Below, one piece after another: positions 1,671 to 49,975 of a stretch of 64,000 bases of DNA. Where the stretch lies: the IMG/VR virus record IMGVR_UViG_3300015262_000004, positions 560-64,559 of that record; one strand, written 5' to 3'. The notes below the pieces were generated by a model. That model made no database searches, had not been told where the DNA came from, and saw only the letters and a list, made by a program, of their open reading frames with translations. Numbering within the stretch: the first letter of the stretch is position 1; every line of letters begins with the position of its first letter. A program made the translations under genes and the position numbers. This stretch comes from a virus. Its lineage: Duplodnaviria; Caudoviricetes.

Positions 1671-1742
1671 GCAACTTACGCAAGTTACATACGTTGCGTA
1701 ACTGACTTAACTTACACAACTTACTTACCTTCCTTAACTTGC
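1671..1742. repeat. parS-like array of 9-bp tandem units downstream of the par operon
   Basis: gcaacttac gcaagttac atacgttgc gtaactgac ttaacttac acaacttac ... in 9-bp phase. Confidence 0.75.
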
Positions 1743-2062
1743 GTAACCTCATTGCCGCTGACCTCAGCCAGCAGCGCGATCACCTGGTCTGCGTCCATGC
1801 GTTGCAAGGCTCTGACACCGGCGCGCACCACGTCGCTACGGCATACCTTGAAGGTGCGCGGAGCCAGTACGAGCTGGTCGATCTCGGCGTTCATCTCATC
1901 AGTCAGAGAGAAGGTGGTGCGCTTGAACACCGCAACCGACGGCTTTGCACCGACCGCGTAGTTCGTCGCGGCACCGGACGCGAAGGCCTTTATTTGATCC
2001 TCGGTCGCGTGCTGCTGTACCGACTTACCACCGGGCGCCAAGCCCCCTAATGATGCTTTCAT
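1721..2062 (-). CDS. small partition adaptor (type Ib centromere-binding, ribbon-helix-helix-like)
   Basis: Coupled to parA by ATGA; FKRTTFSL...IDQL...RSDVVRAGVRAL resembles an RHH fold. Confidence 0.7.
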   Translation of the reverse strand: MKASLGGLAPGGKSVQQHATEDQIKAFASGAATNYAVGAKPSVAVFKRTTFSLTDEMNAEIDQLVLAPRTFKVCRSDVVRAGVRALQRMDADQVIALLAEVSGNEVTQVKEGK

Positions 2063-2755: not shown

Positions 2756-2862
2756 GTACCTTGTGTAAGTTGCGTCAGTTGTGTCAGTTACATAAGTTAC
2801 GCACGTTATGTAACTTATGGCTGTGCTGTAGCTATACAAGTTACCTCACTTACATAAGCTGT
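2756..2862. repeat. parS/operator-like array of 9-bp units upstream of parA
   Basis: gtaagttgc gtcagttgt gtcagttac ataagttac gcacgttat gtaacttat ... acaagttac ctcacttac. Confidence 0.8.
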
Positions 2863-4283: not shown

Positions 4284-4709
4284 TTACTCGGCGGGCGCGG
4301 GCGTTCTCCACGATATAACGGTGTCTTTACCGTACTGGCCGATCCACTCCTTTACTTCTTTTTTCAGGATGTTCGCAGCGCGAACCACCTCACCCGTGTG
4401 CGGGTTCTTGAAGGCGTACCAGACAGTGTTCGGGCCAGCCTTCTTTGACTTGCCGGGGATCAGGTTGCCGTGTTCGTCTCTCGGCCGGGTGACAGCCTTC
4501 TTACCCCGCACGACGATCTGAAAGCTCGGGTCGACAGTCTGCACGGCTTCGTGAATGGTCTTGCCGTGGGTCTTCAACAGCTCACGCAACTCGGACTCAA
4601 AGGCCAGCTCAGCCTTGAGTTGTGGGTTGGCTTGCAGCTCTTGAATCTCTTGTTCGAAAGCCTTCATCTGCGCTTGCAGCTCGCGCATTTTTACTAGGGG
4701 GTTCGTCAT
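4284..4709 (-). CDS. MvaT/MvaU-family (H-NS-like) nucleoid protein
   Basis: N-terminal coiled coil with LKAELAFESELRELL; C-terminal FKNPHTGEVV...KEW...YG...V.SW typical of Pseudomonas MvaT. Confidence 0.88.
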   Translation of the reverse strand: MTNPLVKMRELQAQMKAFEQEIQELQANPQLKAELAFESELRELLKTHGKTIHEAVQTVDPSFQIVVRGKKAVTRPRDEHGNLIPGKSKKAGPNTVWYAFKNPHTGEVVRAANILKKEVKEWIGQYGKDTVISWRTPAPAE

Positions 4710-8621: not shown

Positions 8622-8912
8622 CTACCAGCGTGCCCACTCGGGCAGCTCGTTGTAGATGGACTGGGCAATGCGCTCGTAATTGAGCGCCGTGTCGATGCCC
8701 CCAGCCACTCGGCATGATCTGGCAGTCAAGGCGTTCCACGCGTAGTGCGCCAGATCCTTGGCCGCTTCCTTGGCTTGCTTGCCGTCCGAGTCGAACAGCT
8801 CCGTGGCGTGATTCCCGCCGCTGTGGCGGGTGGCAAAGGCGCGCAGCTCATCGTCGTTCATGGCGTCCAGATTCGGGATGCCATCGGGGTCAACCGGGTG
8901 AATCAGGTTCAT
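8622..8912 (-). CDS. hypothetical protein
   Basis: ATG 8912 after GGAGAG; ends YERIAQSIYNELPEWARW. Confidence 0.7.
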   Translation of the reverse strand: MNLIHPVDPDGIPNLDAMNDDELRAFATRHSGGNHATELFDSDGKQAKEAAKDLAHYAWNALTARSCRVAGGIDTALNYERIAQSIYNELPEWARW

Positions 8913-8932
8913 AGTTTCTCTCCACAAGGTGT

Positions 8933-8963
8933 GTAAGTTGCGTAACGTATGTAAGTTACGCAA
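8933..8963. repeat. short array of par-type 9-bp units
   Basis: gtaagttgc gtaacgtat gtaagttac gcaac; same unit as the parA-flanking arrays. Confidence 0.65.
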
Positions 8964-8971
8964 CGGGTGTA

Positions 8972-9244
8972 TTAAGGACGGCCGACCAACAAATTCCACA
9001 CCTCGATCTGGGCCAGGGTCGCCGCTGGCAGCTGCACAACGTGTTCGCCGGCCTGCGGTGGTGTGGCTTGGGGAAAAGCGCGGCGTTGGTCCATGTACAG
9101 GGAGAACACCGTTTCGATTGCGTCCACGGCTTCACTGATGGCGTGCGGCAGGTCATCGCCGTAGCTGTTCAACTCCGGCAGGTCGCGGCACATCACCGCG
9201 ACACCCACAGCGTCCTGTTCAAAGCGGACCGCAAAGGCGTACAT
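8972..9244 (-). CDS. HicB-like antitoxin domain, no C-terminal DNA-binding domain
   Basis: AVMCRDLPELNSYGDDLPHAISEAVDAI...FPQATP matches the HicB N-terminal pattern. Confidence 0.8.
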   Translation of the reverse strand: MYAFAVRFEQDAVGVAVMCRDLPELNSYGDDLPHAISEAVDAIETVFSLYMDQRRAFPQATPPQAGEHVVQLPAATLAQIEVWNLLVGRP

Positions 9245-9510
9245 CAGCTGCCCAGCAACTTGATGATCAGGGCCATGATCCCGCCAATGGCAGCGAACAT
9301 GCCCGCCGCTGCGGCCATCGGGTACCAGAAGGTTTCGCGGGTAAACTTCCCGGCCTCGGCTATCAGTTTCGCCGCCTCGGAATTCAGCTTGGCCGTTTCC
9401 GCTTTAAACTTCCCCGACTCCTCATTGAGCTTCGTGGTTTCGGCCATCAGTTTGGCGATCTCCGCGTGGATCTTTTCCAGCTCAGTCGTCGACAGTCCCG
9501 CACTTTCCAT
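9244..9510 (-). CDS. small coiled-coil membrane protein
   Basis: Heptad AETxKL repeats, then RETFWYP and one C-terminal hydrophobic helix. Confidence 0.7.
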   Translation of the reverse strand: MESAGLSTTELEKIHAEIAKLMAETTKLNEESGKFKAETAKLNSEAAKLIAEAGKFTRETFWYPMAAAAGMFAAIGGIMALIIKLLGS

Positions 9511-9530
9511 GGTCACTCTCCAGACGGTGC

Positions 9531-9547
9531 GTCCCTACTGTAGGGAC
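9531..9547. repeat. 17-bp palindrome copy 5
   Basis: Exact copy upstream of CTGGAGAG RBS. Confidence 0.95.
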
Positions 9548-9571
9548 AGGGTGGTATAGGTACAGCATACC

Positions 9572-18970: not shown

Positions 18971-20116
18971 ATGCCCACTCAAACGGAAGAAATCATTGCG
19001 TTAGCCCAGAGCATTGCGGCCGACATCAAGCTGTTGGCGAACAGCAAAGTCGACCAGGTCGAGGGCAAAGAGTTGTCGACCGAGGACTACACCACCGCCG
19101 AGAAAACCAAACTCGGCGGCCTGGCCAACTTCGACCCGGCAACGCTGGATAGCCAGTTCGCCGCCAAGCAAGACAAGGTGACGGGCAAAGGGCTGTCGAC
19201 CGAGGACTACACGACGCCCGAGAAAACGAAGTTGGCAGGGCTGGTCCCGTCGGATTTCCCCACCTTGGCAATCGCCGCGACGATGGATATCGGCGCGATC
19301 AACTCGCGGACAATCAGCGTTACTGCCTTTGGCGGCGGCGTGGCCATCACGTCGTTGGGCACCGCCCCGGCGGGGGTTACCAGAACCCTGGTGTTCACTG
19401 CCCTCGGCGCCGGCGCAAAATCGATGACACACAACGCCACGTCGCTGATTTTGCCGGGCGCGATAAACCTGACTTTGACGGTGGGCACCGTGGTCGAAGT
19501 GGTGTCGCTCGGCGGTGGTAACTGGCGCGCAACGAGCGTCACCAAGTCCAACGGTCAAGCCGTGGCCGCTACCCCCTTCGCAGGGGGCACGCTGACGGCG
19601 GCATTGAACGAAGCGCCGATGCAGAACATCACGGCCGCCGAAACCATGAATATTGCCGCGACCACTGCGAACACCTGGATTATCAACGCCGGCACCGAAG
19701 GCACAGAGATCGTCAACCTCGGGACCATAGCGGCGGGCGCTAGACGAACCGTAGTCAACCTAGCCAGCCAGATGGTGTTTAAAAACACGAACCTGGCGCT
19801 ACCGAACGGCTTAGACCTGGTTTTCCCTTATGGCGACGTTGTCGAGTTTTTGAGCCAGGGCAACGGCGCTTGGATGTGCGTGGGGTATCTGGCCGCCAGT
19901 GGAATGCTACGGGCCGGGGCGATTCAGGTCAGTCAGTCCGGCGTGCTTGGCGGCCTGGTGGATATTGGCCCCGGGTCCAGCGGGTCCGGCTCGGCGCCGA
20001 TAAAACTACATGCCGGGACTGTCATGGCGACCCCGGAAACCGGCGCCTTTGAGTTCGACGGGAGCGACCTGTTTTTCACCATAGCCGGCCAACGCAAGAA
20101 ATTCACCCTCACGTAA
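18971..20116 (+). CDS. tail fibre protein 3
   Basis: GKxLSTEDYTTxEKTKL twice plus two divergent copies of the module. Confidence 0.78.
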   Translation: MPTQTEEIIALAQSIAADIKLLANSKVDQVEGKELSTEDYTTAEKTKLGGLANFDPATLDSQFAAKQDKVTGKGLSTEDYTTPEKTKLAGLVPSDFPTLAIAATMDIGAINSRTISVTAFGGGVAITSLGTAPAGVTRTLVFTALGAGAKSMTHNATSLILPGAINLTLTVGTVVEVVSLGGGNWRATSVTKSNGQAVAATPFAGGTLTAALNEAPMQNITAAETMNIAATTANTWIINAGTEGTEIVNLGTIAAGARRTVVNLASQMVFKNTNLALPNGLDLVFPYGDVVEFLSQGNGAWMCVGYLAASGMLRAGAIQVSQSGVLGGLVDIGPGSSGSGSAPIKLHAGTVMATPETGAFEFDGSDLFFTIAGQRKKFTLT

Positions 20117-21130: not shown

Positions 21131-21583
21131 ATGGGCACAGACCTGAATCTTCTATCCCCGGCAGGGCCAGAGCTGCGTCCCGAGTGGTCGATGCGGCTGG
21201 TGATCGACGTTGTGTTGGGTGCCAGTAACGAATCGATCCTGCAATGCCACGACCTGCAGCACCACCAATTCGACCAGATTTGCAAGAATCCGGTGTTCAT
21301 GTCCGCTTGCGACAACATGCGCAAAAGCCTGGACAAGGAAGGCGCGACCTTCCGCCTCAAAGCCCAGCTGCAGGCTGACCATTACCTAACCCGCGTGCAT
21401 GAGATGATCATGGATCCCGAGATGGATCCGCGTGTTACGGCCAAGTTGATCGGCGACGTGGTGCGTTGGGGCGGGCTGGACACGCCACCCCCAGTGGCCG
21501 GCGGCGGGATGGGTTCGTTCTCTATCTCGATCAACTTCCCCGAGAAGGTCCGCCACGGCGTGACCATCGAGGGCGGCCAATGA
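21131..21583 (+). CDS. probable terminase small subunit
   Basis: 150 aa, GAGG RBS, ATGA-coupled to the large subunit. Confidence 0.65.
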   Translation: MGTDLNLLSPAGPELRPEWSMRLVIDVVLGASNESILQCHDLQHHQFDQICKNPVFMSACDNMRKSLDKEGATFRLKAQLQADHYLTRVHEMIMDPEMDPRVTAKLIGDVVRWGGLDTPPPVAGGGMGSFSISINFPEKVRHGVTIEGGQ

Positions 21584-22992
21584 CCGCCTACAACCCGAGC
21601 GTCACGGTGGCGGACTTTATCCTGGACGATCGGGAGTGGACGTACATCGTCGGCCCCGTGGGTTCGGGTAAGTCGGTCGGCATCCTGATGAAAATCCTGC
21701 ACCGCGCCAAGCTGCAGGCGCCGTCGCCGATCGATGGGATCCGGCACACCCGGTGGGTGATCGTGCGGAACACCATGGTGCAGCTCAAAGACACTACCCT
21801 CAAGTCCTGGTTTAGCTGGTTTCCCGACGGCGTTGCCGGCAAGTGGGTGTCCGGTACCAGCACGTTCTGGATGCGCTTCGATGACATTGAGGTCGAGGTG
21901 ATGTTTCGTCCCCTCGATACCCCGGACGACGTGCGCCGAGTGCTGTCCCTGGAAGTGACCGGGGCGATCGTTGACGAATTTGTCGAGATCCCCAAAGAGA
22001 TCGTCGAAGCCCTGTCCGGCCGGTGCGGCCGCTACCCGTCGAAGAAAGACGGCGGCGCCACCTGGTGGGGAATGTGGGGTGCGACCAACCCGGGCAACGA
22101 GGACAACTGGTGGTACGACTGGCTATACAGCGACTGGGAGGATGACCCGGACGGCGCGTTGAAGCGGATGAAACTGGGGTACTACGAACAGCCCAGCGGT
22201 TTCAGTCAGCACGCGGACAACCTGGAGAACCTGCCAGGCGGGAGCAACTACTACCACAACTTGGCCATCGGCCGATCGGACGCCTGGTGCAAACAGTTCA
22301 TCGAAGTGCGCTGGGGTTACAGCCTCAAAGGCAAGCCGGTGTATCGCGCGTTCGTCCCGGATCTGCACGTTGCCAAGCGCCCTATTCCGTACAACCCACA
22401 CCTGCCGTTGTTGGTCGGCTTCGACGCCGGCCTCACCCCGTCCGCGATCTTTGGCCAGCTCTGGCCCGATGGCCGCTTGTGCATCCTGGCCGAACTGACC
22501 ACGGAGAACATGGGCGCGGTGCGGTTTTGTCGTGAAAAATTCAAGCCCCTGGTGGCGATGAGATTTCCCAAACCGCTGCTGCAGTTCGCCGGTGACCCGG
22601 CGATCGTCCAGCGTGCCCAGACCGATGAACGATCGGTGAAAGAGGCCCTGGAAAAAGAGCTGGGCATTCGGGTCTATCCGGCTTCCAGCAACACGTTGTC
22701 CGATCGCCTCGGCGCGGTCGAGCACTTCATGTGCATGTTGACCGAGCACGGGCCGGCACTGCTGATCGACCCGTCGTGCGTCCAGCTCATCCGTGGGTTC
22801 AAGTCGGGTTACCGCTATGCGGTGAGCAACAAGGGCCTGGCCGCCGAGTCGCCAGAAAAGAACGCATTCAGTCACCCGCACGACGCCATGCAGTACCTGG
22901 CCATGGAAGCAAAGGGTGGGCAGATCCGTGACGCCCGACGCAGGACCAGTGCATCTGTCCGGTTCGGCCCTTCCACTAACGCATATTCCTAG
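21580..22992 (+). CDS. terL: terminase large subunit
   Basis: GPVGSGKS, VIVRNT, AIVDE, ATNP, GFDAG, SHPHDAMQY. Confidence 0.92.
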   Translation: MTAYNPSVTVADFILDDREWTYIVGPVGSGKSVGILMKILHRAKLQAPSPIDGIRHTRWVIVRNTMVQLKDTTLKSWFSWFPDGVAGKWVSGTSTFWMRFDDIEVEVMFRPLDTPDDVRRVLSLEVTGAIVDEFVEIPKEIVEALSGRCGRYPSKKDGGATWWGMWGATNPGNEDNWWYDWLYSDWEDDPDGALKRMKLGYYEQPSGFSQHADNLENLPGGSNYYHNLAIGRSDAWCKQFIEVRWGYSLKGKPVYRAFVPDLHVAKRPIPYNPHLPLLVGFDAGLTPSAIFGQLWPDGRLCILAELTTENMGAVRFCREKFKPLVAMRFPKPLLQFAGDPAIVQRAQTDERSVKEALEKELGIRVYPASSNTLSDRLGAVEHFMCMLTEHGPALLIDPSCVQLIRGFKSGYRYAVSNKGLAAESPEKNAFSHPHDAMQYLAMEAKGGQIRDARRRTSASVRFGPSTNAYS

Positions 22993-22999
22993 GTGACCC

Positions 23000-25132
23000 A
23001 TGGTTGACGAATTTGACACGCCGGTCGAAGAGGCCCGCGACATCAACACCACCGAGGGCAAGCGCAAGCTCGGCCGCCACCTGCAGAACAAATTCACCCA
23101 GTACAAGACAGATCGCCAGTCGATCGAGCAGCAGTGGCTGACCAACCTGATGCAGTACCTGGGCAAATACGACGCTGAGTTTGAACAACGCATGGTGGCG
23201 AACACCAGCCGCGCGTATCCGAAGCTGACCCGCGTCAAGTGCGTCAGCGTGGAAGCGCGGCTGATGTCCCTGACGTTCCCGGCCAGCGAAAAGAACTGGT
23301 CGATCGAGGCGTCACCGGTGCCGAGCCTTAGCGCGGACACCCTGACCAGGGCGCTGCAGAACTGGTACGAAGCCAACCAGGGGCAGCAACCGACACAGGT
23401 ACAGCTCGATGGGATGGTGCAGGACGTTGCCACCGGCGTGGCTGACCTGCTGGCGGTCACGATCGATGACCAGCTCAAAGACGTCGACCCGTACGCCAGC
23501 CGCGACTATGAGGCGTTGGTGAAAAAGGTGGTCGGCTCGGCCGTGAAGTACGGCCCCGGGGTGGTTAAGGGTCCAATGGCGGTACAGCAGGACGTGGCCA
23601 GCTTCGAGCTGGACGCCAACGGCGTGCCCACCGTGGTGGAAACCGAGGCGTTCCGCCCGTACCTGGAGTTCGTTCCGTGTTGGCAGTACTACCCCGACCT
23701 CAGCGCGTCGTCGTTCGCGCAGATGGAAGGCGAGTTTCAGCGTCATGTGTTCTCGAAGCACCAATTCAGCCTGATGGCTGAACGGCCAGACTTCGACGGT
23801 GACGCGATCCGCTCATTCATGGCGGGCAACCGCGACGGCAATTACACCGAGCTGGGTTATGAGGGCACGTTGCGCAACCTGGGCACCAACGGGGCCAGCG
23901 CCGTACCGAAGGGCAGCAAGTTCGAGGTGTTGGAGTACTGGGGTTCCGGTTCGGCCAAGCACCTACGCGAGGCCGGGGCAGACATCCCCGCTGACGCCAA
24001 AGACAACAGGCAGTTCCGGTACAACGCGTGGGTGGTGGGTGAGTTCGTTATCAAGATAGCCCTCAATCCGTTGCCAGAAGGCACCAACATTTTCCACAAG
24101 TTCGTGTTCGAGGAAGACGAGATCAGCCTGGTGGGCTCGGGCTTGCCGCCGATCATGCGCGACAGCCAGCTGGGGGTGTCGAACTTCACCCGGATGCTGG
24201 TCGACAACGCGGCCACGGTCTGCGGTCCGAGCGTCGAGGTGGATACCTCGATCATCGACCCGAACCAGACCGACCTGGGTATCAAGGCGTTCCAGGTGTG
24301 GCGCCGCGACGGTGGTACTGCTGGCCAGCGTGCGGTGATGCCGATCACCTTCGACTCCCACATTAGCGAGCTGCTGCAGGGCATCAACACGTTCATGGGC
24401 TTTGCGGACAAAGAGACGTTCGTGAGCCCGGCCGCCGGTGGTGACGTCGAGGGTGTATCGGGTGAGGCCCTGCGTACCAGCAGTGGCGCCTCGATGATCT
24501 ACGGCAACGCCGCCCTGCCCTTCAAAGACATTGTGCGCAACTTCGACCAGTTCACCGTGAGCGTGATCCACGCCCTGGTGGAGTGGAACCGCATTTTCAG
24601 CCCCGACCGCGACCGCCTGATGGGTGACGTGCGCCCGATCGCGCGTGGGGCGACCAGCCTCATGGCTAAAGAAATGCGCTCCTATGCCCTGGACAACCTG
24701 GCGCAGACCCTCACCGAGGAGGAACGCCAGTGGATCAAACCGAAAGCGCTGCTGGTCGAGCGGTTGAAGGTCCGCGACCTCCCGGTCAAAGAGCTGCTGG
24801 AAGACGACGCAGTGGTGGAGCAACGCCAGGCGCAGCAGTCGCAGCAGATGCAGGACCAGATGCGTCAGCAGATGCAGATGTTCATGGCACAGCTGGAGAA
24901 CCTGCAGGCCGACACCATGAAAGCCCTGACCCAAGGGCAGAAGAACTTGGACAACGCGGATGTCGTTGTTTTCAAAGCACTTTTGGAGGCGCTAAAGAAT
25001 GGATCAAGCCCCGAGCAAATCGCAGCAATTGCAGGCCGACTTACAGCGGGCCGCCAAAGCGGCCAACGACAGCCCGCTGGCCAAGACCCTGCAGCGGTAC
25101 CTGGAGGAAACACGCCAATCAGTATTCAGTGA
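23000..25132 (+). CDS. portal protein
   Basis: 710 aa directly after terL, with a Q-rich C-terminal helical extension typical of podovirus portals. Confidence 0.85.
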   Translation: MVDEFDTPVEEARDINTTEGKRKLGRHLQNKFTQYKTDRQSIEQQWLTNLMQYLGKYDAEFEQRMVANTSRAYPKLTRVKCVSVEARLMSLTFPASEKNWSIEASPVPSLSADTLTRALQNWYEANQGQQPTQVQLDGMVQDVATGVADLLAVTIDDQLKDVDPYASRDYEALVKKVVGSAVKYGPGVVKGPMAVQQDVASFELDANGVPTVVETEAFRPYLEFVPCWQYYPDLSASSFAQMEGEFQRHVFSKHQFSLMAERPDFDGDAIRSFMAGNRDGNYTELGYEGTLRNLGTNGASAVPKGSKFEVLEYWGSGSAKHLREAGADIPADAKDNRQFRYNAWVVGEFVIKIALNPLPEGTNIFHKFVFEEDEISLVGSGLPPIMRDSQLGVSNFTRMLVDNAATVCGPSVEVDTSIIDPNQTDLGIKAFQVWRRDGGTAGQRAVMPITFDSHISELLQGINTFMGFADKETFVSPAAGGDVEGVSGEALRTSSGASMIYGNAALPFKDIVRNFDQFTVSVIHALVEWNRIFSPDRDRLMGDVRPIARGATSLMAKEMRSYALDNLAQTLTEEERQWIKPKALLVERLKVRDLPVKELLEDDAVVEQRQAQQSQQMQDQMRQQMQMFMAQLENLQADTMKALTQGQKNLDNADVVVFKALLEALKNGSSPEQIAAIAGRLTAGRQSGQRQPAGQDPAAVPGGNTPISIQ

Positions 25133-26338: not shown

Positions 26339-27385
26339 ATGGCTTATACCGGCACCGCCTACGGCGACATCACTCCACGCCAAGCTGCGTACTCGATGGC
26401 TGGCTTTCTGAAACGTGCTATCGCGCTGATGACTATCGAGCGCTTTGGGCAAACCTACCAAGTCCCGGCGAACAACACCGCGACTGCCAAGTTCCGTCGG
26501 TACTTCCTGGCTGGGGCCGGTGGTTCCGCTGGCCCGGGTACCGGCGATTTCAACGTGCCGGTGGCTACCACTGCGCTGACCGAGGGTGTAACCCCGGCCG
26601 GTCGTAAGCTGTCCAGCAAAGACTACACCGTCACCCTGCAGCAGTATGGCGATTACGTCGAGTTCTCGGACGTGATCCAGGACATCCACGAAGACTACCC
26701 GGGCTTGCTCAAGGAGATGATGGATCTGCTGGGTGAATCGGCGGCCATGACCGTGGAAACGCTGCGCTTCAACATCCTGAAAGCAGGCACCAACGTGTTC
26801 TACGCCAACGGCGCAAGCCGCGCGGCCGTGAACAGCACCCTGACCCTGGCCTTGCAGCGCAGCATCACCAAGTCGATGAAACGCCAGAACGCCAACACCA
26901 TCAGCTCGGTGCTGAGTTCGTCCGCGAACTACAACACCCAGCCGATCGAGGCGGCGTTTATCTGCCTGATTCACACCGACCTGGAAAACGACGTCCGCGA
27001 CATGGACGGTTTCATCGGTACCAAACACTACGCGAGCACCCAGCCCTTCCCGGGTGAAGTGGGTTCGGTTGAGGACGTGCGTTACATCCGTTCGACCGTG
27101 TTCGTACCGTGGGAGGACGCCGGTGGTCTTGCGGCTACCAACGACGTGATGTCGACCACTGGCGTCAACGCCGATGTGTACCCGGCGATTTACCTGGCCA
27201 AGGATGCTTTCGGCACCGTGGCGCTGCGCGGTAAGTCGGTGGCCAACATCATGGTGGTAATGCCAAAGGCTTCCTCGGGTGACCCGCTGGGTCAACGTGG
27301 TACCGCAGGCTGGAAGCTCTGGAACGGCACTGTGATTCTGCAGGATGCGTTCCTGGTTCGTGCGGAAGTGGCTGCCTCGGCGTAA
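26339..27385 (+). CDS. major capsid protein, N4-gp56 family
   Basis: LTEGVTP, LQQYG, GEVGSVEDVRYI, DVYP, DPLGQRGTAGWK; AAGGAG RBS. Confidence 0.92.
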   Translation: MAYTGTAYGDITPRQAAYSMAGFLKRAIALMTIERFGQTYQVPANNTATAKFRRYFLAGAGGSAGPGTGDFNVPVATTALTEGVTPAGRKLSSKDYTVTLQQYGDYVEFSDVIQDIHEDYPGLLKEMMDLLGESAAMTVETLRFNILKAGTNVFYANGASRAAVNSTLTLALQRSITKSMKRQNANTISSVLSSSANYNTQPIEAAFICLIHTDLENDVRDMDGFIGTKHYASTQPFPGEVGSVEDVRYIRSTVFVPWEDAGGLAATNDVMSTTGVNADVYPAIYLAKDAFGTVALRGKSVANIMVVMPKASSGDPLGQRGTAGWKLWNGTVILQDAFLVRAEVAASA

Positions 27386-28117: not shown

Positions 28118-28831
28118 ATGAAACTGCAAGAGCTGGTCGATGAGCTTCGCGAGAACGTGCTGCGTGATATTTCCGACGCCGTGAACACGGATGCCGACAG
28201 CTACTTGCTCAGTGACAAGTCGTTGGTGCGGTACCTCAATGAGGCGCAGGAACGATTCGCCGACAAGACCCAGTGTCTTCGCGACGAATCGACGCCAGCG
28301 GTAACCCGGATCACATTGGTCCACGGAGTCGACAGTTACGCCTTAGATCCGCGTGTGGTGGCTGTGCTCGGGGCTCGCACCCGGCAGCGGCACCTGCGGC
28401 TGCGGCCGTACGGGTCGATCGTTACAACCCGGGGCAACTTCAACACGGGTTACCCGCTCGATACGTCCGTGTCTGACGGCTCCCCGACCTATTACTACAC
28501 CGACCGGGAGACGGGAAAGATCGGCTTATGGCCCGCGCCAAACCCCGACTTTGCCCTCAACGAGTTGGTGTTACGCGTAGCCAGGCTACCGATCAAGTCG
28601 CTGGTGGTTGAGGACTTGAGCGCCGTGCCGGAAATCCCCTCGCAGTACCACATGTCCCTTGTGGATTGGGCGGCCTACCGCTGCCTGACCAACAGCGACA
28701 TCGAGCTGCAAGATCAGATCAAGGCGAACAGTCGCAAGAACCGTTTCAACGAAACCGTCGAGGAGCTGAAAAAAGACGCCAAGCGTCTGATGCTCAACGA
28801 GATTGCGTTTGACGTCACCAGCTGGAGATAA
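28118..28831 (+). CDS. head-tail adaptor
   Basis: YLNEAQ...LWPAP...PEIPSQYHMSLVDWAAYR adaptor pattern. Confidence 0.75.
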   Translation: MKLQELVDELRENVLRDISDAVNTDADSYLLSDKSLVRYLNEAQERFADKTQCLRDESTPAVTRITLVHGVDSYALDPRVVAVLGARTRQRHLRLRPYGSIVTTRGNFNTGYPLDTSVSDGSPTYYYTDRETGKIGLWPAPNPDFALNELVLRVARLPIKSLVVEDLSAVPEIPSQYHMSLVDWAAYRCLTNSDIELQDQIKANSRKNRFNETVEELKKDAKRLMLNEIAFDVTSWR

Positions 28832-30104: not shown

Positions 30105-32357
30105 ATGCCGGTAATTACGAAAGAACTACTCGATCGTGCCAACGAGCTGCAGTTGGCAGCGCAGCAAAAGATCGCCGGCGAACGTGAGGCGGCTGCAGCT
30201 GAGGCTGAGGCCAGCCGGTCGAACACCTGGGGGGAAGCCCTTGGCAACCTTGGCCCGCAGGCACTGTCGGGGGCGGTGAGCGTGGCGCAGGCAGGCTACG
30301 GCCTCGCTAACCTGGCCTCGCTTGGGTTGCTCGATCGCGCCACGGGGTTCTCTCAGAACTTCGACGAAACGCAACAGATCCTGGGGGGCATGCAGTCGGC
30401 CCCGACCCAGCGTGCAGCGCAGAACGTTAGCAAGTCGTTCAAGGATGACGGCATCCTGGCAGGCTTGGGAACCGCGATCACCAGCCCGGCGTTCCTGCAG
30501 CAGCAGGTCGTTCAAACGATCCCGTCGATGATCCCTGTGGGAGCGGCCGCACGCTTTGCCGGCGGTATCGCTGCTGAGGCGGGCGTTGCGCGCGGGCTCG
30601 GTCTGGCGGCTGCGCGACAGGAAGCGGCACACGCCGCAGAAAAGGCGGTGCTGTTGACCACCGGTGGCCAGATCGGTGGCCAGACCAACGTCGACGCGAT
30701 CAACGCCATTCGCCAGGCCGGCGGCAGTGAGAACCAGCAGCAGCTGGGTGGTCTGGGTGCGGGCGTGGCTTCGGGCTTAGCCGGTGCGGTGCTTGGCAAG
30801 TTGACCGGCGCAGCGCGGTTAGAAAGCGCCGCTGCCAACGCGTTGCCAGGTGGTGTGCCGGCGGCCGCAGTGAACTACGGCCTGGTACCAACCATAGTGG
30901 GCGGTGCCGCACGGGAACTGACTGAGGAATCGGCGCAGTCCGCGACCCAGCAGCTGGCTACGAACGCCGTCACCCCGGGCAAGGATCTGTTTGACGGTGT
31001 TGGGCAACAGGCTGCGGTGGGTGGTTTGCTCGGTGGCCTCATGGGCGGCGCGATGGGCGGCGTCATCTCGGCCAGTACCCCACGTTCGAGCGATGCCACC
31101 CCTCTGGGGCAACGGCTGCGCGCCATGATGGGCAAGAAGAACAGCGAGTTGGACGAACCGCTGCAGCCGAATGCGATCGGGCCGGCCCCTACAGCCGACG
31201 TCGAGGAGATGGCCCCCGAGGAAATCAACCTGGCAGACACGCCGTTGCCTGGTGGTTTGCCCGCAGACGCCCCGCTGCCCCGCCGTACGCTCTACGACAT
31301 CACCGGTCGATCGCCGACGCAGGGCCTACGGCCGCCTGTTGGTGGCTACGACGTCGAGGAAGTGCCACCCGCCACGCGTACTGGTTTGCTCGGCGTGCTC
31401 GATCTGCAGCGCAACAAGGGCGTTCTGGGTGGTGGTGACCTGGCTGGTGGCGAGCTGGATTGGCAGGGTGCTTTCCCTGCCCCGCTCCCACAGGTGCCCC
31501 GGGCTGCAGACGCCCCGTCTGAGGTGGACCAGCAGCAAGGTGCGCTCGACTTCAACGCGCCGATCCCGACGTGGAAACAGTTTCTGGCAAAAGACCTGGA
31601 TGTTAAGCCGGGCGCCCTCACCCGCAACAACAAGGTGTGGGGACAGTTCCTGGACGCCGCTGAGAAGGCCGGGGTCACGCCTGGCAGTACCGACGGTGAG
31701 GCGTTCATGCGCCAGATCGCGCCGTCGTTGGTTACCAACCCGGCCACCGCGCCGCTGTTCGCTGCGCGCATGGCCGAAAAGTACGGTCCACAAGTTACGC
31801 CAGTTACGCCAGTTGCATCAGTTACGCCAGTTACGCCAGTTGCATCAGTTACGCCAGTTGCGCCAGTTGCGCCAGTTGCACCAGTTACACCAGTTACACC
31901 AGTTACGCCAGTTACACCAGTTACGCCAGTTACACCAGTTACGCCAGTTACGCCAGAGGCCCAACGCACTCCGCAGCAAAAGGCTGCGTATGTGACTGCG
32001 CTGCGTGAACAGTTGACCGAGGCGCAGGGGCAGGTACAGGCCACCCGCCAGGCCCGCGACCTGGATTCGTCCAGGGAGTGGCGCCTGCAGGAACTGATGA
32101 CCCAGCGTGAACTGCGGGCGGCCACAGGGCGGCCAACGGCGGGGATGGATAAGCTCATCGCCAAGCAGCGCATCTACATAGATGACATCGCGGCCGGCCG
32201 TGCGGCGATCGCGCAGGCGCAAGCCACGCCGGCACCGGTGCAACCGGCTACACCAGGTTCGCCGGCCGTTGGCCAAGTGACACCCGCGACTTTGGCGGGC
32301 GTGGATAAACAGATCGCCAGCAACATGCGGTTCGACCCAAGCATCAGCCGTGCGTAA
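30105..32357 (+). CDS. large internal virion protein, N-terminal part
   Basis: Gly/Ala-rich hydrophobic segments, ELTEESAQ; ends at a TAA in frame with the next ORF. Confidence 0.7.
31790..31951. repeat. 18 x 9-bp tandem array (RYMAGTTRC) encoding (VTP/VAP/VAS)n
   Basis: Counted unit by unit; unit matches the parA-flanking repeats. Confidence 0.9.
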
Positions 32358-32384: not shown

Positions 32385-35300
32385 ATGATGGATGCGCTGG
32401 ATTCCGATGCGCTTGATCAGACCTTTATCGACATCAAGTCGCACCCGGACTGGGCAAAGCTGAGCAAGCCGCAGCAGGACCAGGTGGTTCAAGACTTCGA
32501 AGCCCGCTACGACGCCCTGGAATCGCCGGGCAAATTCGACCGGGCTACCGAGGAGGTGGCCAAGCCGATCCACATCACCGACTTCCACCAGGGTATCGCG
32601 GCGGCAAACCGCAACCGTGGGGCCGGTGACGCGCAGGTGATCGGCCTTGAAGACGTGGCGGAATTTGAGAACTTGACCCAACAGGCGGCACCGCCCGATG
32701 CCCGGGGCGTGTTCACCGACGGCAAAATCTACTTGATCCGCGAAAACCTCAGCAGCCCTGAGCAGATGGCAATCACCCTGGCGCACGAACGTGGTCACCA
32801 TGGGTTGGCCGCGCTGCTGGGTGATCGTATGCCGGCCGTGCTCAACAGGTTGTGGACCAACCCGGCGACCCGTACCCGGATCAAGGCCAAGATGGTTGCC
32901 TTGCAGGCGGGTGAGGTCGACGTGGAGAACGGCAGCCTGCGTAAGTTGGCCGCTGAGGAAGTGTTGGCCGACATGTTCGCCGCTGGTGAGAAGGTCAACG
33001 GCGATATTCTCACCAAGGCCCGCAACGCTATCGAGCAGACGTTTGCCACGCTGCTGGGGGTGGGCAAACTGCGCATGAACAACAATGACGTGGATTCGAT
33101 CCTGCGTGACGTCTCGGCGGTGCTCAAGGGCACCAGTGCTGGGGTGCTGCGCCAGGGCGAACCAATCGCGCGTGATCTGCCTGGCATGATGGCCGACCCG
33201 ACGCCCTGGACAACGGGCGATGCTCGATTCAGCAGGGCGATCGCGGACACCGACGAAATCATTCGGGCGGCCACGGCCGAGCAAGACGGTACCCGCCGTA
33301 ACCTGGCTGACGTCATGGTCGATGTGGGTAAAGCCAGCATGGCCAAGGTGCGGGGGCTGGGCACGGCCACCGTTCGGGACAAGGTCGCCTCGGGACTGCT
33401 TAACGCGGTGCCGTTGAACCAGCTGGCCAGCTTGTACGACAAGCTGATGGAAGGCCGGTTGGGGAACTTTGCCCGTCTGAAACGTGCGCAAGAGTCGATG
33501 CACAACAAGTTGCTGACGCAGGAAAAGGATCTGCAGCTGGGTGACAAAACCTACAAGGTGTCGCCGCAGTCACTGTCAAAACAATGGGTGAGTTTTGCCC
33601 ACCGCAACGAGGCCAAGGCCGCCGCGCTGAGTCAGCTGCAGCAGGAAGCGACCATGTACCGCCTCTGGCCGGGCCGTAAGTTCGAGGCGCAGAGCAAGGT
33701 CGGGTACGAGGCGGCCAGCTTTACCGAGGATGAACGCCGCGCGGCATCAGAGCGTGTCAACAAGTTGTGGGATGCCATGGGTACCGAAGCCCAGGAGATT
33801 TTCAACAAGTCCCAGGCCCTGTACGACCGCGCCTGGAACACCCGGTTCGAGACGCTGCGCAAGGTGCTGGCTGAGAAAAGCAAGCCGGGCGACATGACCA
33901 TGGATGAGTACGCCAAAACGCCCGCCTTCAAGCAGGCCTTTGGCAACATGATCGACACCGCGCTTGCCAAAATGCGCCAAGGCCCGTACTCGCCACTACA
34001 ACGGTACGGCGACTACATGCTGACGGTGCGGGATAAGGCGGGTCAAGTCGCGTACTTCCATGGTTTCGACACCATCGAGGAACGGAACCTGGCCGAGCGG
34101 GATCTGCGCCAGGGCGAGTTCGCCGGCACGGATTATGTGATCGCTCCCACTAAGCGCATGGAAACCACCTGGAGCCAGATGGGGCTCAACCAGCAGGCGA
34201 TCGATCAGCTTGAGAACGTCGCGACCACCCTGTTTCCGTCTACTAACTCCGAGTCAGGGGAGACGAAGACGGCGCGGGATCTGCGCCAGGCCCTGGTCGA
34301 GGCTTACCTGCAGTCGCTCCCGCAGCATTCATTCATGCAGCACGCGAACCAGCGCAAGAACATCAAGGGTGGTTCGATCGATGCGATGCGCGGGTTCAAC
34401 GACTACATGGGCAAGTCGAGCCGCAACATCGCCGGCCTGGAATACAACCACCAGATCAGCGAGGCGTTGACCGGCCTCAGCACGTTCGTGACAGAGAAGG
34501 CCCAAGGCAAACTCGGCGAAGTGGACGGCGACACGTTGACCAAGATGAACCGGGTGGTCAACGCCGTCAGGGCGCAGCACGAAGCGTCGATCAAGTATGA
34601 GCGCTCGCCCGTGGCTGACATGATCAGTAGCGCAGGCTTTCTGATGTTCATGTCCTCACCCAGCCAGCTGTTCGTCAACGCCATGCAGGTACCGATGGTG
34701 ACCCTGCCGCGCTTGGCCGGTGCCTACGGCAACACGTCGTCGATTCAGGCGCTCAGGGGCGCGTTGGGTGCCTTCGCGAAATCCCGGGGCGACCTGCGTG
34801 GCGACAAGTCGGTACTGGCACCAGGCAGCTGGGAACGCCGCGTGCTCGATACGCTGTACGAGCGGGGCATCCTGGACTTTACCCTGGCGCACGACATGAA
34901 CGGGCTGGCCAATGGCGAGGGGTCGGCCATGTCCGGCCACTGGCGCAAGGTCATGGAAGCGGCCGGGTTCTTTATGCACCGCTCCGAAGTGTTCAACCGT
35001 CAGGTCACAGCCTTGGCAGCGGCCCGCCTGGAAGCGCAAAAGAGCGGTGTCAACACCGGGGCAATGACACAGGAGCAGGTCGACAGGCTGGCCGATTCCG
35101 TCGAAGACTCGGTGATCAGCACCCAGTTCGACTACAGCCAATCGAACAAGGCCAAGCTGATGCAAGGCCCGTGGCGCAAGGTGATTTTCCAGTTCCAACA
35201 GTACCGCGTAAACATGTTGGCCATGATGGCCAAGGACGTCCGCGACAGCTTCACCGGTACCAAGGAGGAGAAGCAGACCGCCCGCCGTGCGTTGTCCTGG

Positions 35301-36110
35301 ATGTTGGGGATGCAGCTGGCCCTCACCGGCGCGGCCGGCACCGTGTTAGCTCCGATCGCCTTCGGCATCGCGGATCTGTTCCGTGACGATGATGACCTGT
35401 TGGATAGCCGCAGTGAATTCGTCCGGTCGGTACCGCAGTGGCTGGCCCACGGTGTGTTGTCCGGGGTACTGGATACGACCCGGATTGGCGCCGATGGACT
35501 GTTGTCAGCCGGCGGTGCTTATGCGCCCAAGGACGCGACGGCCAAGGAGAAGTTCCAGTATTACCTGCTGGCCAACATCGGCCCGTGGGCCGGCCTGGGT
35601 GCCAACGCTGCCACCGGCCTGGAGAAAGCCATGCAGGGCGACCACGTTGGGGCGGTCAAGAACCTGGCCCCGGCCGGCGTACGCGACGTTTACCGCGCTT
35701 TGTTCGAGAGCCAGCAGGGGGCGAAGGACACTAGACAGGTTGTCTACTTCGAGCCTAACCTTTGGGACACAATGTCCACCGCGATGGGCCTAAAAAGTGG
35801 ACGCCGTCGCGATGCCGAGGAGCTGCGTGGGGCTGCGTTCGAAGCGAACTTGCATACCCAGACACTCAAAGGCCGCAAGGTCGGTCGCCTGGCCCTTGGC
35901 TTCGCGACCGGTGATCCTGAAATGATCGCCACCGCACAGGATGAGATACGCGAATGGAACAGCCGATACCCAGATATGGCTATTTCCGGCACCGCCGTAC
36001 GACAAGCCACCTTGAACCGCGTGCGATCGCAGATGAACGCCGACCAGACCGGCGTGGCGTCTTCGCGGCCGCTCGGCCCATCCACTCGGGATGCCATAGG
36101 TCTGGATTGA
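32385..36110 (+). CDS. large internal virion protein, C-terminal part (polyvalent-protein-like, zincin motif)
   Basis: TLAHERGHHG...AEEVLAD; QFDYS...FQFQQY; same frame as 30105-32357. Confidence 0.75.
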   Translation: MMDALDSDALDQTFIDIKSHPDWAKLSKPQQDQVVQDFEARYDALESPGKFDRATEEVAKPIHITDFHQGIAAANRNRGAGDAQVIGLEDVAEFENLTQQAAPPDARGVFTDGKIYLIRENLSSPEQMAITLAHERGHHGLAALLGDRMPAVLNRLWTNPATRTRIKAKMVALQAGEVDVENGSLRKLAAEEVLADMFAAGEKVNGDILTKARNAIEQTFATLLGVGKLRMNNNDVDSILRDVSAVLKGTSAGVLRQGEPIARDLPGMMADPTPWTTGDARFSRAIADTDEIIRAATAEQDGTRRNLADVMVDVGKASMAKVRGLGTATVRDKVASGLLNAVPLNQLASLYDKLMEGRLGNFARLKRAQESMHNKLLTQEKDLQLGDKTYKVSPQSLSKQWVSFAHRNEAKAAALSQLQQEATMYRLWPGRKFEAQSKVGYEAASFTEDERRAASERVNKLWDAMGTEAQEIFNKSQALYDRAWNTRFETLRKVLAEKSKPGDMTMDEYAKTPAFKQAFGNMIDTALAKMRQGPYSPLQRYGDYMLTVRDKAGQVAYFHGFDTIEERNLAERDLRQGEFAGTDYVIAPTKRMETTWSQMGLNQQAIDQLENVATTLFPSTNSESGETKTARDLRQALVEAYLQSLPQHSFMQHANQRKNIKGGSIDAMRGFNDYMGKSSRNIAGLEYNHQISEALTGLSTFVTEKAQGKLGEVDGDTLTKMNRVVNAVRAQHEASIKYERSPVADMISSAGFLMFMSSPSQLFVNAMQVPMVTLPRLAGAYGNTSSIQALRGALGAFAKSRGDLRGDKSVLAPGSWERRVLDTLYERGILDFTLAHDMNGLANGEGSAMSGHWRKVMEAAGFFMHRSEVFNRQVTALAAARLEAQKSGVNTGAMTQEQVDRLADSVEDSVISTQFDYSQSNKAKLMQGPWRKVIFQFQQYRVNMLAMMAKDVRDSFTGTKEEKQTARRALSWMLGMQLALTGAAGTVLAPIAFGIADLFRDDDDLLDSRSEFVRSVPQWLAHGVLSGVLDTTRIGADGLLSAGGAYAPKDATAKEKFQYYLLANIGPWAGLGANAATGLEKAMQGDHVGAVKNLAPAGVRDVYRALFESQQGAKDTRQVVYFEPNLWDTMSTAMGLKSGRRRDAEELRGAAFEANLHTQTLKGRKVGRLALGFATGDPEMIATAQDEIREWNSRYPDMAISGTAVRQATLNRVRSQMNADQTGVASSRPLGPSTRDAIGLD

Positions 36111-36140: not shown

Positions 36141-36458
36141 ATGGAGGCGTTTGTGGCTGAGTTAACTGCGTGGCTTCGCCTAGGTGTCCTCGCTGCGTTC
36201 GGCGGGGCGGCCAGTTACATCTATCTGATGATTACCAAGAACCGCCCGTTTCGGTGGATCACCTTCTTGGCCAACCTGTTCATCGCCTTCTTTGTGGGCA
36301 AGGCCATGGGCGGATTCGTACCCGAGGACACCAAGAACTTTTCCGGCGTGGTGATGCTTATGGGGTTCTGCGCGTACCCGGTACTAGGGATAGTCGAGGA
36401 GAAAATTGTCTCCTATATCAACAAGCGGATCGCTGCCGCTGGGGAGAACGCACCATGA
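36141..36458 (+). CDS. holin
   Basis: 105 aa, three hydrophobic segments, first gene of the lysis cluster. Confidence 0.7.
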   Translation: MEAFVAELTAWLRLGVLAAFGGAASYIYLMITKNRPFRWITFLANLFIAFFVGKAMGGFVPEDTKNFSGVVMLMGFCAYPVLGIVEEKIVSYINKRIAAAGENAP

Positions 36459-48349: not shown

Positions 48350-49975
48350 TCAGTCATCCCAGCCGGCGAATGCCAGCGCCGGATCGGCCAAGTGAGGTTG
48401 GTTCGGTGCGCCAGTGGGTTGTGCGTCTGGCTGTGGGCCATTCGTCCAACCATCACCGCCGGCCGGCTGCTGTACAACAGGTTGCTGTTGAGCAACAGGT
48501 TGCTGGGTTTGCTGCGGCTGTTGCTGAGGCTGCGGCTGTTGGCCACCTTGAGCACGCTGCTTGTCAGCTTCGTCCAGGCGTTCGTCCTCCTGGATTTCCT
48601 CCTTGGTCCGGCGCTGCTTACCTGCCGAGGGCCGACCACGTTCGCGGCCACCTTCTGGTGCCAACGGGGCTTGCTGCTGCGGCGGCTGCTGGTTGTGCGC
48701 AGTGCCCTCCTCACCTGGCCACCCACCGGCGCCGACGTTGGCTGCTGGCTGATGGTTCTGCTGCGGCTGGTTGTTCACAACAGGTTGGGCTTGCTCACCC
48801 CAGCCCGCATTGGCAACAGGTTGCTGTGGGTCTTCACCCCAGCCCGCGCCGGCCGCTGGTTGTGGCCGCTGCTGGTTGGCTGGGTTGGTGGTAGCGCCGG
48901 CCCCGCTCCAGGTTTCGTGCGAAGCCGATTGCGGCATGCGCTCAACCGGTTGCGGCTGTTGCTGCGGCTGGTTAACAGGGCGCACTTGCTCACCCCAGCC
49001 CGCGTCGGCCGGCAGGTATTCTTGCTGCGGCTGTTGCTGCTGATGGTTCTGCTGCGGCTGGTTGTTCACAACAGGTTGGGCTTGCTCACCCCACCCAGCG
49101 TCGGACGGTGCCGGCCGTTGCTGCGGCTGCTGCTGGTGGGTCTGCTGCGGCTGCTGGTAGTTCTGCTGGGGCTGTTGCTGATGGTTCTGCGGCTGCTGCG
49201 GCTGTTGGTTGTACTGCGACTGCGGCGCTTGCAGCACGCCTTGAGCTTCGGCCAGGCCACACACGCGCTTGGCTTCTTCGTCATCGTAACGACCGTTCAC
49301 CGCTTCGTATTCGTCCATGTCCAGCCAGCGTCTGGCTTTAAACAACAGCTTGGGGAAACTGACGGTGGTGTCAAACGACAGGGTCGCGACGATCATGTTG
49401 TACGCGGCCGGTGGGGTGTTCGCACCCAGCCCGCTGATGAACCCACGGAAGTCCTTGAGCGAAGCCGGCGGCACAGCCACCTGGTACAGGTCGCCCTTGT
49501 ACGCGAAGCTACCACCCTGACCCGGGGCCATGATCGCCATACGCTTGGTGTCTTGGCAGGCTTTGCCCTTGGCGCCCGTGGTTGGGTTCACGTAGGAACC
49601 CCACTGATTTTTCGGGCACTCGGCGCAGTTGACGTGCTGCTTGGCTGGTGAGTCAACGCGGGGTGCCACGCCGTCATCGCTTGAGCAATCCGGCTGGGTG
49701 GTGTCGTCGTTCGGGTTCCAGTCCTTGAGGTAGAACGTCTTGTTGATACCGTCGTTGATGCGGACGATGGCAACGTCCAGGTCGAAGGCCTGGATCGGCT
49801 GGATACTGCCGCCGATTACGCGGGAAAAGCGGCACTGTTTCAGGCTGATGCGGTTGACACCACCGACACCAGTGCCGACAACGGCACCGGCGTTCATCAG
49901 GCGAGCGCGGTCGGTTTGATTCTGGACATAGGCCGGGGCTTGACCCTGGCCAAAGGGAATTAGATTGCTCATCAC
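48350..49975 (-). CDS. probable ssDNA-binding protein with long Q/P-rich repeat tail
   Basis: PDCSS...CAECPKNQWGS...KAC...VPPASL core; acidic/aromatic terminus AGWDD; replication-module position. Confidence 0.6.
   Translation of the reverse strand: MMSNLIPFGQGQAPAYVQNQTDRARLMNAGAVVGTGVGGVNRISLKQCRFSRVIGGSIQPIQAFDLDVAIVRINDGINKTFYLKDWNPNDDTTQPDCSSDDGVAPRVDSPAKQHVNCAECPKNQWGSYVNPTTGAKGKACQDTKRMAIMAPGQGGSFAYKGDLYQVAVPPASLKDFRGFISGLGANTPPAAYNMIVATLSFDTTVSFPKLLFKARRWLDMDEYEAVNGRYDDEEAKRVCGLAEAQGVLQAPQSQYNQQPQQPQNHQQQPQQNYQQPQQTHQQQPQQRPAPSDAGWGEQAQPVVNNQPQQNHQQQQPQQEYLPADAGWGEQVRPVNQPQQQPQPVERMPQSASHETWSGAGATTNPANQQRPQPAAGAGWGEDPQQPVANAGWGEQAQPVVNNQPQQNHQPAANVGAGGWPGEEGTAHNQQPPQQQAPLAPEGGRERGRPSAGKQRRTKEEIQEDERLDEADKQRAQGGQQPQPQQQPQQTQQPVAQQQPVVQQPAGGDGWTNGPQPDAQPTGAPNQPHLADPALAFAGWDD

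Follow-up and report, generated by a model that had tools for sequence, protein, structure and literature searches.

The 64,000-nucleotide window analysed here, taken from the 64,559 bases of virus record IMGVR_UViG_3300015262_000004 (G000), carries an array of eighteen 9-bp tandem units within a gene for a large virion protein, and these units resemble the repeats that flank the partition (par) locus of the same phage. The locus raises the question of whether the array serves the protein, as a linker, or the DNA, as a set of sites for the partition adaptor. In our assessment, the array is probably a proline-rich linker born of slippage, that is, a coding variable-number tandem repeat (VNTR), and would have no role at the DNA level. 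We propose that such a young linker would arise by replication slippage at a module junction of a polyvalent virion protein of about 2000 amino acids (aa), that amplification of one founder unit would give it uniform, rare codons, and that it would persist since a flexible proline-rich spacer is tolerated or needed at the junction. At the DNA level the array does resemble the 9-bp GTAAGTTRC repeats of the par locus, but this resemblance would not be a selected function.

The unit RYMAGTTRC starts 18 times in succession between 31790 and 31943, at an exact spacing of 9 bases, which gives 17 successive MAGTT-N4-MAGTT pairs. Tandem Repeats Finder reported the array as 31793–31956 (period 9, 18.2 copies, 87% matches, zero indels, score 230), by far the strongest of the window. 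AGTT at positions 4–7 and C at position 9 are present in 18 of 18 units; position 1 is A in 8 and G in 10, position 2 is C in 16 and T in 2, position 3 is C in 17 and A in 1, and position 8 is A in 13 and G in 5. With a period that is a multiple of three, the array reads in frame as Q(V-T/A-P/S)n within the open reading frame (ORF) at 30105–32357. All 18 Val codons are GTT, and the codon preceding each GTT is CCA (15 units), TCA (2) or CAA (1). Both main codons are minority choices in the long ORFs of G000, where GTT makes up 13.3% of Val and CCA 17.1% of Pro codons. The initial annotation had described 18 phased units with GTT for Val and CCA/TCA codons, and this description was right in every checkable detail. 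Its placement of the array about half a genome from parA also holds, the distance being 29,465 bp or 0.46 of the genome.

The gene itself is a real one. Of giant virion-protein PHROGs, its 750-aa ORF matches the N-terminal part and a 1241-aa ORF downstream the C-terminal part, and in relatives both parts are fused in single open frames of 2020 and 2038 aa. The two ORFs of G000 are one frame split by a single TAA (32355–32357) inside a conserved stretch. All metagenome runs that cover position 32355 (X1, X2 and X3) have C there, which gives CAA (Gln) and a protein of about 2001 aa like those of the relatives. The TAA may be a mutation of the G000 genome or a sequencing error. The product is probably an internal or ejected polyvalent virion protein.

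Homologues of the 750-aa gene are 44–53% identical to it. The 750-aa protein alone as query returned no relatives in the viral or genome collections, and neither this gene nor the par region had a match in the phage collection (Megablast, tblastn), from which near-identical records may be missing. Relatives about 74% identical were reached through the capsid protein, among them G001, whose complete 58.7-kb genome has direct terminal repeats. G001 is syntenic with G000 (39 of 79 G000 ORF translations match), and none of the G000 ORFs between 1146 and 12454, par included, matches it. A search of G001 gave no ParA and no adaptor match, and just four scattered AGTTAC sites without an array.

Alignment with the G001 and G003 homologues showed that the array of G000 and a repeat of G001 occupy the same columns, right after a conserved ...AEKY. 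The G001 repeat reads (P[VA]PAVE)x8 and has an 18-bp unit (CCTGYCCCTGCGGTCGAG) whose synonymous sites are identical in all copies, the sole variation being a non-synonymous T/C (V/A); it uses CCT, which accounts for 16% of G001 Pro codons, twice per unit. Locus L279 carries an independent expansion at the junction, (PAAVE)x3 with a 15-bp unit, and at L277/L278, L280, L281/L283 and L282 the junction is Pro/Ala/Glu-rich and non-tandem. These eight loci represent six distinct homologues, all six of which have a proline-rich low-complexity stretch at the junction and none of which has a VTP repeat there. Beyond the junction lies a swapped module that differs between relatives. Because the junction is proline-rich in all six homologues, the protein-level linker appears to have come first. 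As G001 lacks par and has its own codon-homogeneous repeat at this position, uniform rare codons point to a young slippage array rather than to selection on the DNA. The initial annotation had regarded the peptide repeat as a by-product of a centromere; this claim finds no support, since a relative without par independently expanded a proline-rich linker at the same junction.

Viral contigs commonly carry VTP peptide repeats, with at least 293 arrays in at least 127 loci, and among the VTP matches listed, 3 of the 28 arrays with at least 10 units are codon-homogeneous. Three copies of CCAGTTRCR were also found in at least 124 bacterial loci. In 73 of these 124 loci the antisense strand holds the longest open frame (G-x-T, collagen-like) and in only 26 does that frame read P-V-T/A, and the motif was dropped as an argument either way.

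The array also varies among near-identical phages, which were found in metagenome runs X1, X2 and X3 from three studies and whose flanks show 0–1 differences over more than 400 bp. These data are contigs, so that the failure of a variant to appear elsewhere proves nothing. The X3 phage has one 9-bp unit fewer, at 31793, and A/G swaps at 31887, 31889, 31896 and 31907, which are unit positions 8 and 1; a minor variant contig of X1 carries X3-type swaps. Since the number and order of units vary among near-identical phages, the array is a VNTR, as slippage predicts. At 31957, after the last CCA, X3 has GTG (Val) instead of GAG (Glu), which extends the V-x-P pattern with a different Val codon.

Proline-rich tandem linkers (coding VNTRs) of phage and bacterial multidomain proteins are likewise in-frame, short-period repeats rich in Pro, Val, Thr and Ala that lie at domain junctions, differ in length and unit between relatives and are polymorphic in copy number. 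The array shows no substantive difference from them. Its sole oddity is the likeness of its DNA unit to the resident par repeats.

Table 1. Features of G000 referred to in the text.
Feature	Coordinates	Strand	Family match or remark
ORF of 750 aa, N-terminal part of large polyvalent virion protein; ends in in-frame TAA 32355–32357	30105–32357	+	phrog_2206, phrog_30335
Coding array, 18 x 9 bp, RYMAGTTRC; codons GTT-RCR-YCA; encodes (V-T/A-P/S)18	31790–31951	+	
ORF of 1241 aa, same frame, continuation of polyvalent protein	32385–36110	+	LPD39; DarB-like PHROG
Small Walker-type ParA, 230 aa	2059–2751	-	Pfam AAA_31 2.2e-18, CbiA, MipZ, ParA; PHROG ParA-like 1.5e-40
Adaptor P0001, 113 aa; N-terminal tail and C-terminal domain like ribbon–helix–helix (residues ~48–95)	1721–2062	-	Just downstream of ParA
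Par-upstream array, 9-bp phased units (GTAAGTTGC, GTCAGTTGT, GTCAGTTAC, ATAAGTTAC ...); ends in inverted pair TAAGTTAC-N9-GTAACTTA	2761–2823	+	
Par-downstream array, 9-bp phased units (GTAAGTTGC, GTAAGTTGT, GTAAGTTAA, GTCAGTTAC)	1671–1745	-	Orientation opposite to upstream array
Site 3, third copy of par-type units (GTAAGTTGC, GTAAGTTAC; 18-bp period)	8925–8970	+	Directly upstream of ribosome-binding site of gene 8622–8912 (-); faces gene 9041–9559 (+)
Terminase	21466–22992		
Portal	23000–25132		
Major capsid	26339–27385		
SU10-type adaptor	28118–28831		

The par operon (1721–2751) looks like a type Ib partition locus, which combines a small Walker ParA with a small adaptor of ribbon–helix–helix (RHH)-like fold (Table 1). 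ParA is of the small Walker type and lacks a helix–turn–helix (HTH) domain at its N terminus; in the viral collection it gave one match, at 24% identity, which was not used. The adaptor, P0001, returned no relatives as a single query in the viral collection and one weak actinobacterial match among genome contigs. Its family comprises 71 cluster representatives, in which an MGLKGL tail at the N terminus and a C-terminal domain, RxTFSLT...RSDVVKAG, are conserved; in this domain the strand-like RxTFSLT motif is followed by two helices, and Pfam RHH_1 matched 4 of 38 members weakly. The AlphaFold2 (AF2) model of P0001 has a predicted local distance difference test (pLDDT) score of 81. Its fold matches (VIA-align) are mostly RHH proteins, namely TraM, PutA, NikR, Arc, Mnt and the ParB of pCXC100 (3no7, Z 2.7). 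A Foldseek search of the PDB with the model gave zero matches at E ≤ 0.001, and a profile search of PDB sequences with P0001 gave no RHH match and no detectable sequence relationship. As the fold-match Z is at most 5.5, we refer to P0001 as RHH-like and not as a proven RHH protein.

The operon is flanked on both sides by AGTT-core repeats in 9-bp phase, and both arrays contain an inverted unit. The flanking units cited in the initial annotation are present: GCAAGTTAC at 1680, GTCAGTTAC at 2783 and, on the minus strand, at 1698, ATAAGTTAC at 2792 and ACAAGTTAC at 2836. The last of these had been singled out as a 9-mer shared with the coding array; it is indeed shared, but one shared 9-mer is about what chance would yield (128,000 positions/4^9, ~0.5). 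Site 3 is likely an operator, through which the adaptor may control a further early operon as well. Omega on pSM19035 regulates other operons in like manner. In promoter scans, a sigma-70-like site was found only at 1140–1111 on the minus strand (TTGACA-18-TATAGT, 11/12, near consensus), for a leftward ATPase gene, and none at site 3. The -10 element of this promoter overlaps an AGTTAC, and therefore AGTTAC near par is not always array-borne.

In PMC3074162, the cognate sites of a type Ib system are described as non-palindromic units in uninterrupted 9-bp phase, and that system, like G000, combines a small Walker ParA with a small adaptor that has a C-terminal RHH-like domain. It differs from G000, where an array lies on either side of the operon, the two running in opposite orientation and each combining direct with inverted units. 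Parallels were also found on plasmids. The adaptor was located by tblastn on 125 plasmid records, 103 of them from Pseudomonas, and an AAA-family ATPase precedes it in both plasmid records examined. The neighbouring ParA proteins of related adaptors are 48–55% identical to that of G000. Operons of ParA and a hypothetical protein on two plasmids (P. mendocina NZ_CP115818.1 and P. syringae NC_019328.1) encode an adaptor 41–50% and a ParA 48–52% identical to those of G000, and both their upstream and their downstream sides bear GTAAGTT/AACTTAC units in 9-bp phase, as in G000. Unlike G000, these are plasmids and not phages, and no long array of the unit, remote or coding, occurs in either.

GTAAGTT-type units in 9-bp phase were found beside related adaptors at L284, L290, L291, L292 and L293, which represent two plasmids and Pseudomonas genomes; examples of the units are GTAAGTTGC, GTAACTTGG and TTAAGTTGC at L284, and ACGTAAGTT and GCTTAAGTT at L290 and L291. 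Beside the more distant adaptors at L273 and L275 the 9-bp period is retained with other units, such as CGTAAAGTG in 5.7 copies. A repeat array thus travels with the adaptor at the G000 flanks and at L273, L275, L284 and L290–L293, and because unit and phase recur beside related adaptors, GTAAGTTRC at 9-bp spacing is the presumed cognate unit, to which the adaptor is predicted to bind. At L292, on the P. mendocina plasmid NZ_CP115818.1, the par-downstream array consists of GTAACTGAC, TTCACTTAC, TTAAGTTGC and GCCAGTTAT, about 25–70 bases past the adaptor gene; it is closely like G000 1694–1745 and includes a GCCAGTT unit as in the coding repeat. Five records with related adaptors were searched whole (G006, its near-identical counterpart G007, G008 and the plasmids W01 and W02), and none contained a remote long array of the cognate unit. 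Phased pairs of local units in these records either lie no more than about 3 kb from the par operon or are isolated, near-chance pairs, so that among these records the remote array is unique to G000.

The resemblance between coding and par units was scored with a matrix of 11 par and site-3 units, a set biased by having been picked for the AGTT core. The coding units scored 8.1–11.7 bits (mean 9.8, n = 18), against 11.4–16.1 bits for the matrix units. At position 2, 16 of 18 coding units carry C and 10 of 11 par units carry T; at positions 2–3, 15 coding units carry CC, against T[A/C] in the par units. The AGTT core never varies and RC is retained. Across G000, 98 matches reached at least 7.5 bits compared with 66 ± 9 in shuffled sequences, and the excess consists of the par arrays, site 3 and the coding array.

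Several of these comparisons weigh against a linker devoid of any DNA-level role. The coding array shares with the par units a 9-bp period and an invariant AGTT core, and its period and phase match the cognate repeats without an indel; the coding positions that vary (1, 2 and 8) vary in par units too. A random 9-mer taken as a tandem unit (all rotations, both strands) reaches 9.8 bits with p = 0.0024, and GTTACGCCA ranks first among the 64 synonymous V-T-P codings with a codon-usage-weighted probability of 0.0064, both values being nominal, since the matrix units were chosen for the AGTT core and the finding itself was picked for its likeness. GCCAGTTAT is a unit of the P. mendocina par-downstream array, and therefore CC at positions 2–3 does occur in a genuine array. 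G000 is the sole member of its group seen with par and also the sole one seen with a RYMAGTTRC unit. Finally, the third bases of Pro and Val, which fall within AGTT, never vary and that of Thr/Ala does, a weak signal from few independent events. We set aside the unvarying AGTT as evidence of selection on the DNA, because the array of the par-less G001 also varies only non-synonymously. The resemblance that the initial annotation had pointed to is thus, nominally and at face value, more than chance, and a slippage-born linker leaves the nominally improbable fit of its founder unit to the resident par repeat unexplained.

This fit would be explained if an earlier proline-rich linker had been reshaped into 18 phased adaptor sites, serving as an extra centromere or operator as well as a linker, which we regard as unlikely. 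On this account, the peptide would have shifted from a PAVE to a PVT type so that each 9 bp holds the AGTT core of the adaptor site, and adaptor dimers would coat the array cooperatively, recruit ParA and might modulate late transcription. In addition to the top-ranked coding and the shared phase, which is also that of the arrays beside related adaptors, site 3 already provides a par-type site at a distance of 6 kb from the operon. There is also precedent for dispersed sites. The centromere sites of N15 spread into late-gene regions, and its Sop system is reported to facilitate late gene expression. With IR1–4 and SopAB, this phage-plasmid resembles the proposed arrangement in having several partition sites on a phage genome, as described in PMC7205306, but N15 has a type Ia HTH ParB, single palindromes and no peptide-coding tandem array, and is a proven plasmid prophage. 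Plasmid upkeep is unsupported in G000, in which no integrase or repressor family was found and whose relative bears direct terminal repeats and encodes a DNA polymerase of its own. The coding units are moreover sub-optimal: they score below the cognate ones and lack the GTA at positions 1–3 that is common to the sites of G000, L284, L290/L291 and L293. The coding array contains no inverted unit, whereas the par-side arrays and site 3 all mix direct and inverted ones. The remote array is missing from all five whole records with related adaptors, and G001, without par, has a like repeat at the same junction.

Judging from the same sequence likeness, the adaptor might instead occupy the array fortuitously through 18 summed AGTT cores, a neutral or mildly costly consequence under no selection; adaptor titration or a roadblock would be examples of such a cost. 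We consider this very unlikely. Single coding units score like scattered chance matches, for example GCCAGTTAC at 36210 and, on the minus strand, at 19518, so that only the number and phasing of units would drive occupancy, and the units differ at positions conserved among cognate sites. A common origin, with part of a par array landing at the junction and multiplying there by slippage, strikes us as extremely improbable. The junction borders the swapped central module in relatives, and the 10-mer TCAGTTACGC occurs in both the par-downstream and the coding array, but the shared stretch is just 10 bases long, the flanks hold no trace of par-array sequence, and a local ancestral PAVEP or PQVTP motif can seed the repeat alone. 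We favour the slippage-born linker, which would account for the repeat being there at all, for where it lies, and for its period and uniform codons, and for which the proline-rich junction of the six homologues, the independent expansions in G001 and at L279, and the polymorphism seen with X3 and X1 speak.

If the array is such a linker, it offers a clean example of how proline-rich repeats sprout and turn over at the junctions of giant phage virion proteins, and it carries the caution that uniform rare codons within a repeat do not signal selection at the DNA level. If it were used at both levels, it would be one of the rare cases in which selection maintains a single piece of DNA as a linker in a protein and, at once, as a partition or regulatory element with many sites, and a podovirus-like phage would gain another partition locus, roughly half the genome away from parA. 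The analysis also defines a widespread, unnamed adaptor family of Pseudomonas plasmids and phages, whose 9-bp GTAAGTTRC repeats flank the operon on both sides.

By gene content, G000 looks like a podovirus. In addition to the structural and packaging genes in Table 1, it encodes lysis genes and its own family-A DNA polymerase, primase-helicase and ligase, and family scans of its proteins detected no integrase or repressor families. Classed as direct-terminal-repeat with 100% completeness, the record has a 123-base direct repeat at 1–123 and 64437–64559 that may be a true terminal repeat or an overlap from circular assembly. The minus-strand gene at 4284–4709 encodes a protein of 141 aa that has an MvaT DNA-binding domain at its C terminus (Pfam PF22055, 3.8e-08) and represents a phage-borne version of the Pseudomonas type of xenogeneic silencer. 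Taken with the par module's Pseudomonas relatives, this protein points towards a Pseudomonas host. A second hot spot of coding repeats lies in the minus-strand gene at 48350–49975, where G000 has 21–27-bp repeats at 49119–49227 and the homologous gene of G001 has a 21-bp repeat in 10 copies (QQNWNQP-like; G001 23661–23928). As this hot spot is common to G000 and G001, coding VNTRs are habitual in this phage group.

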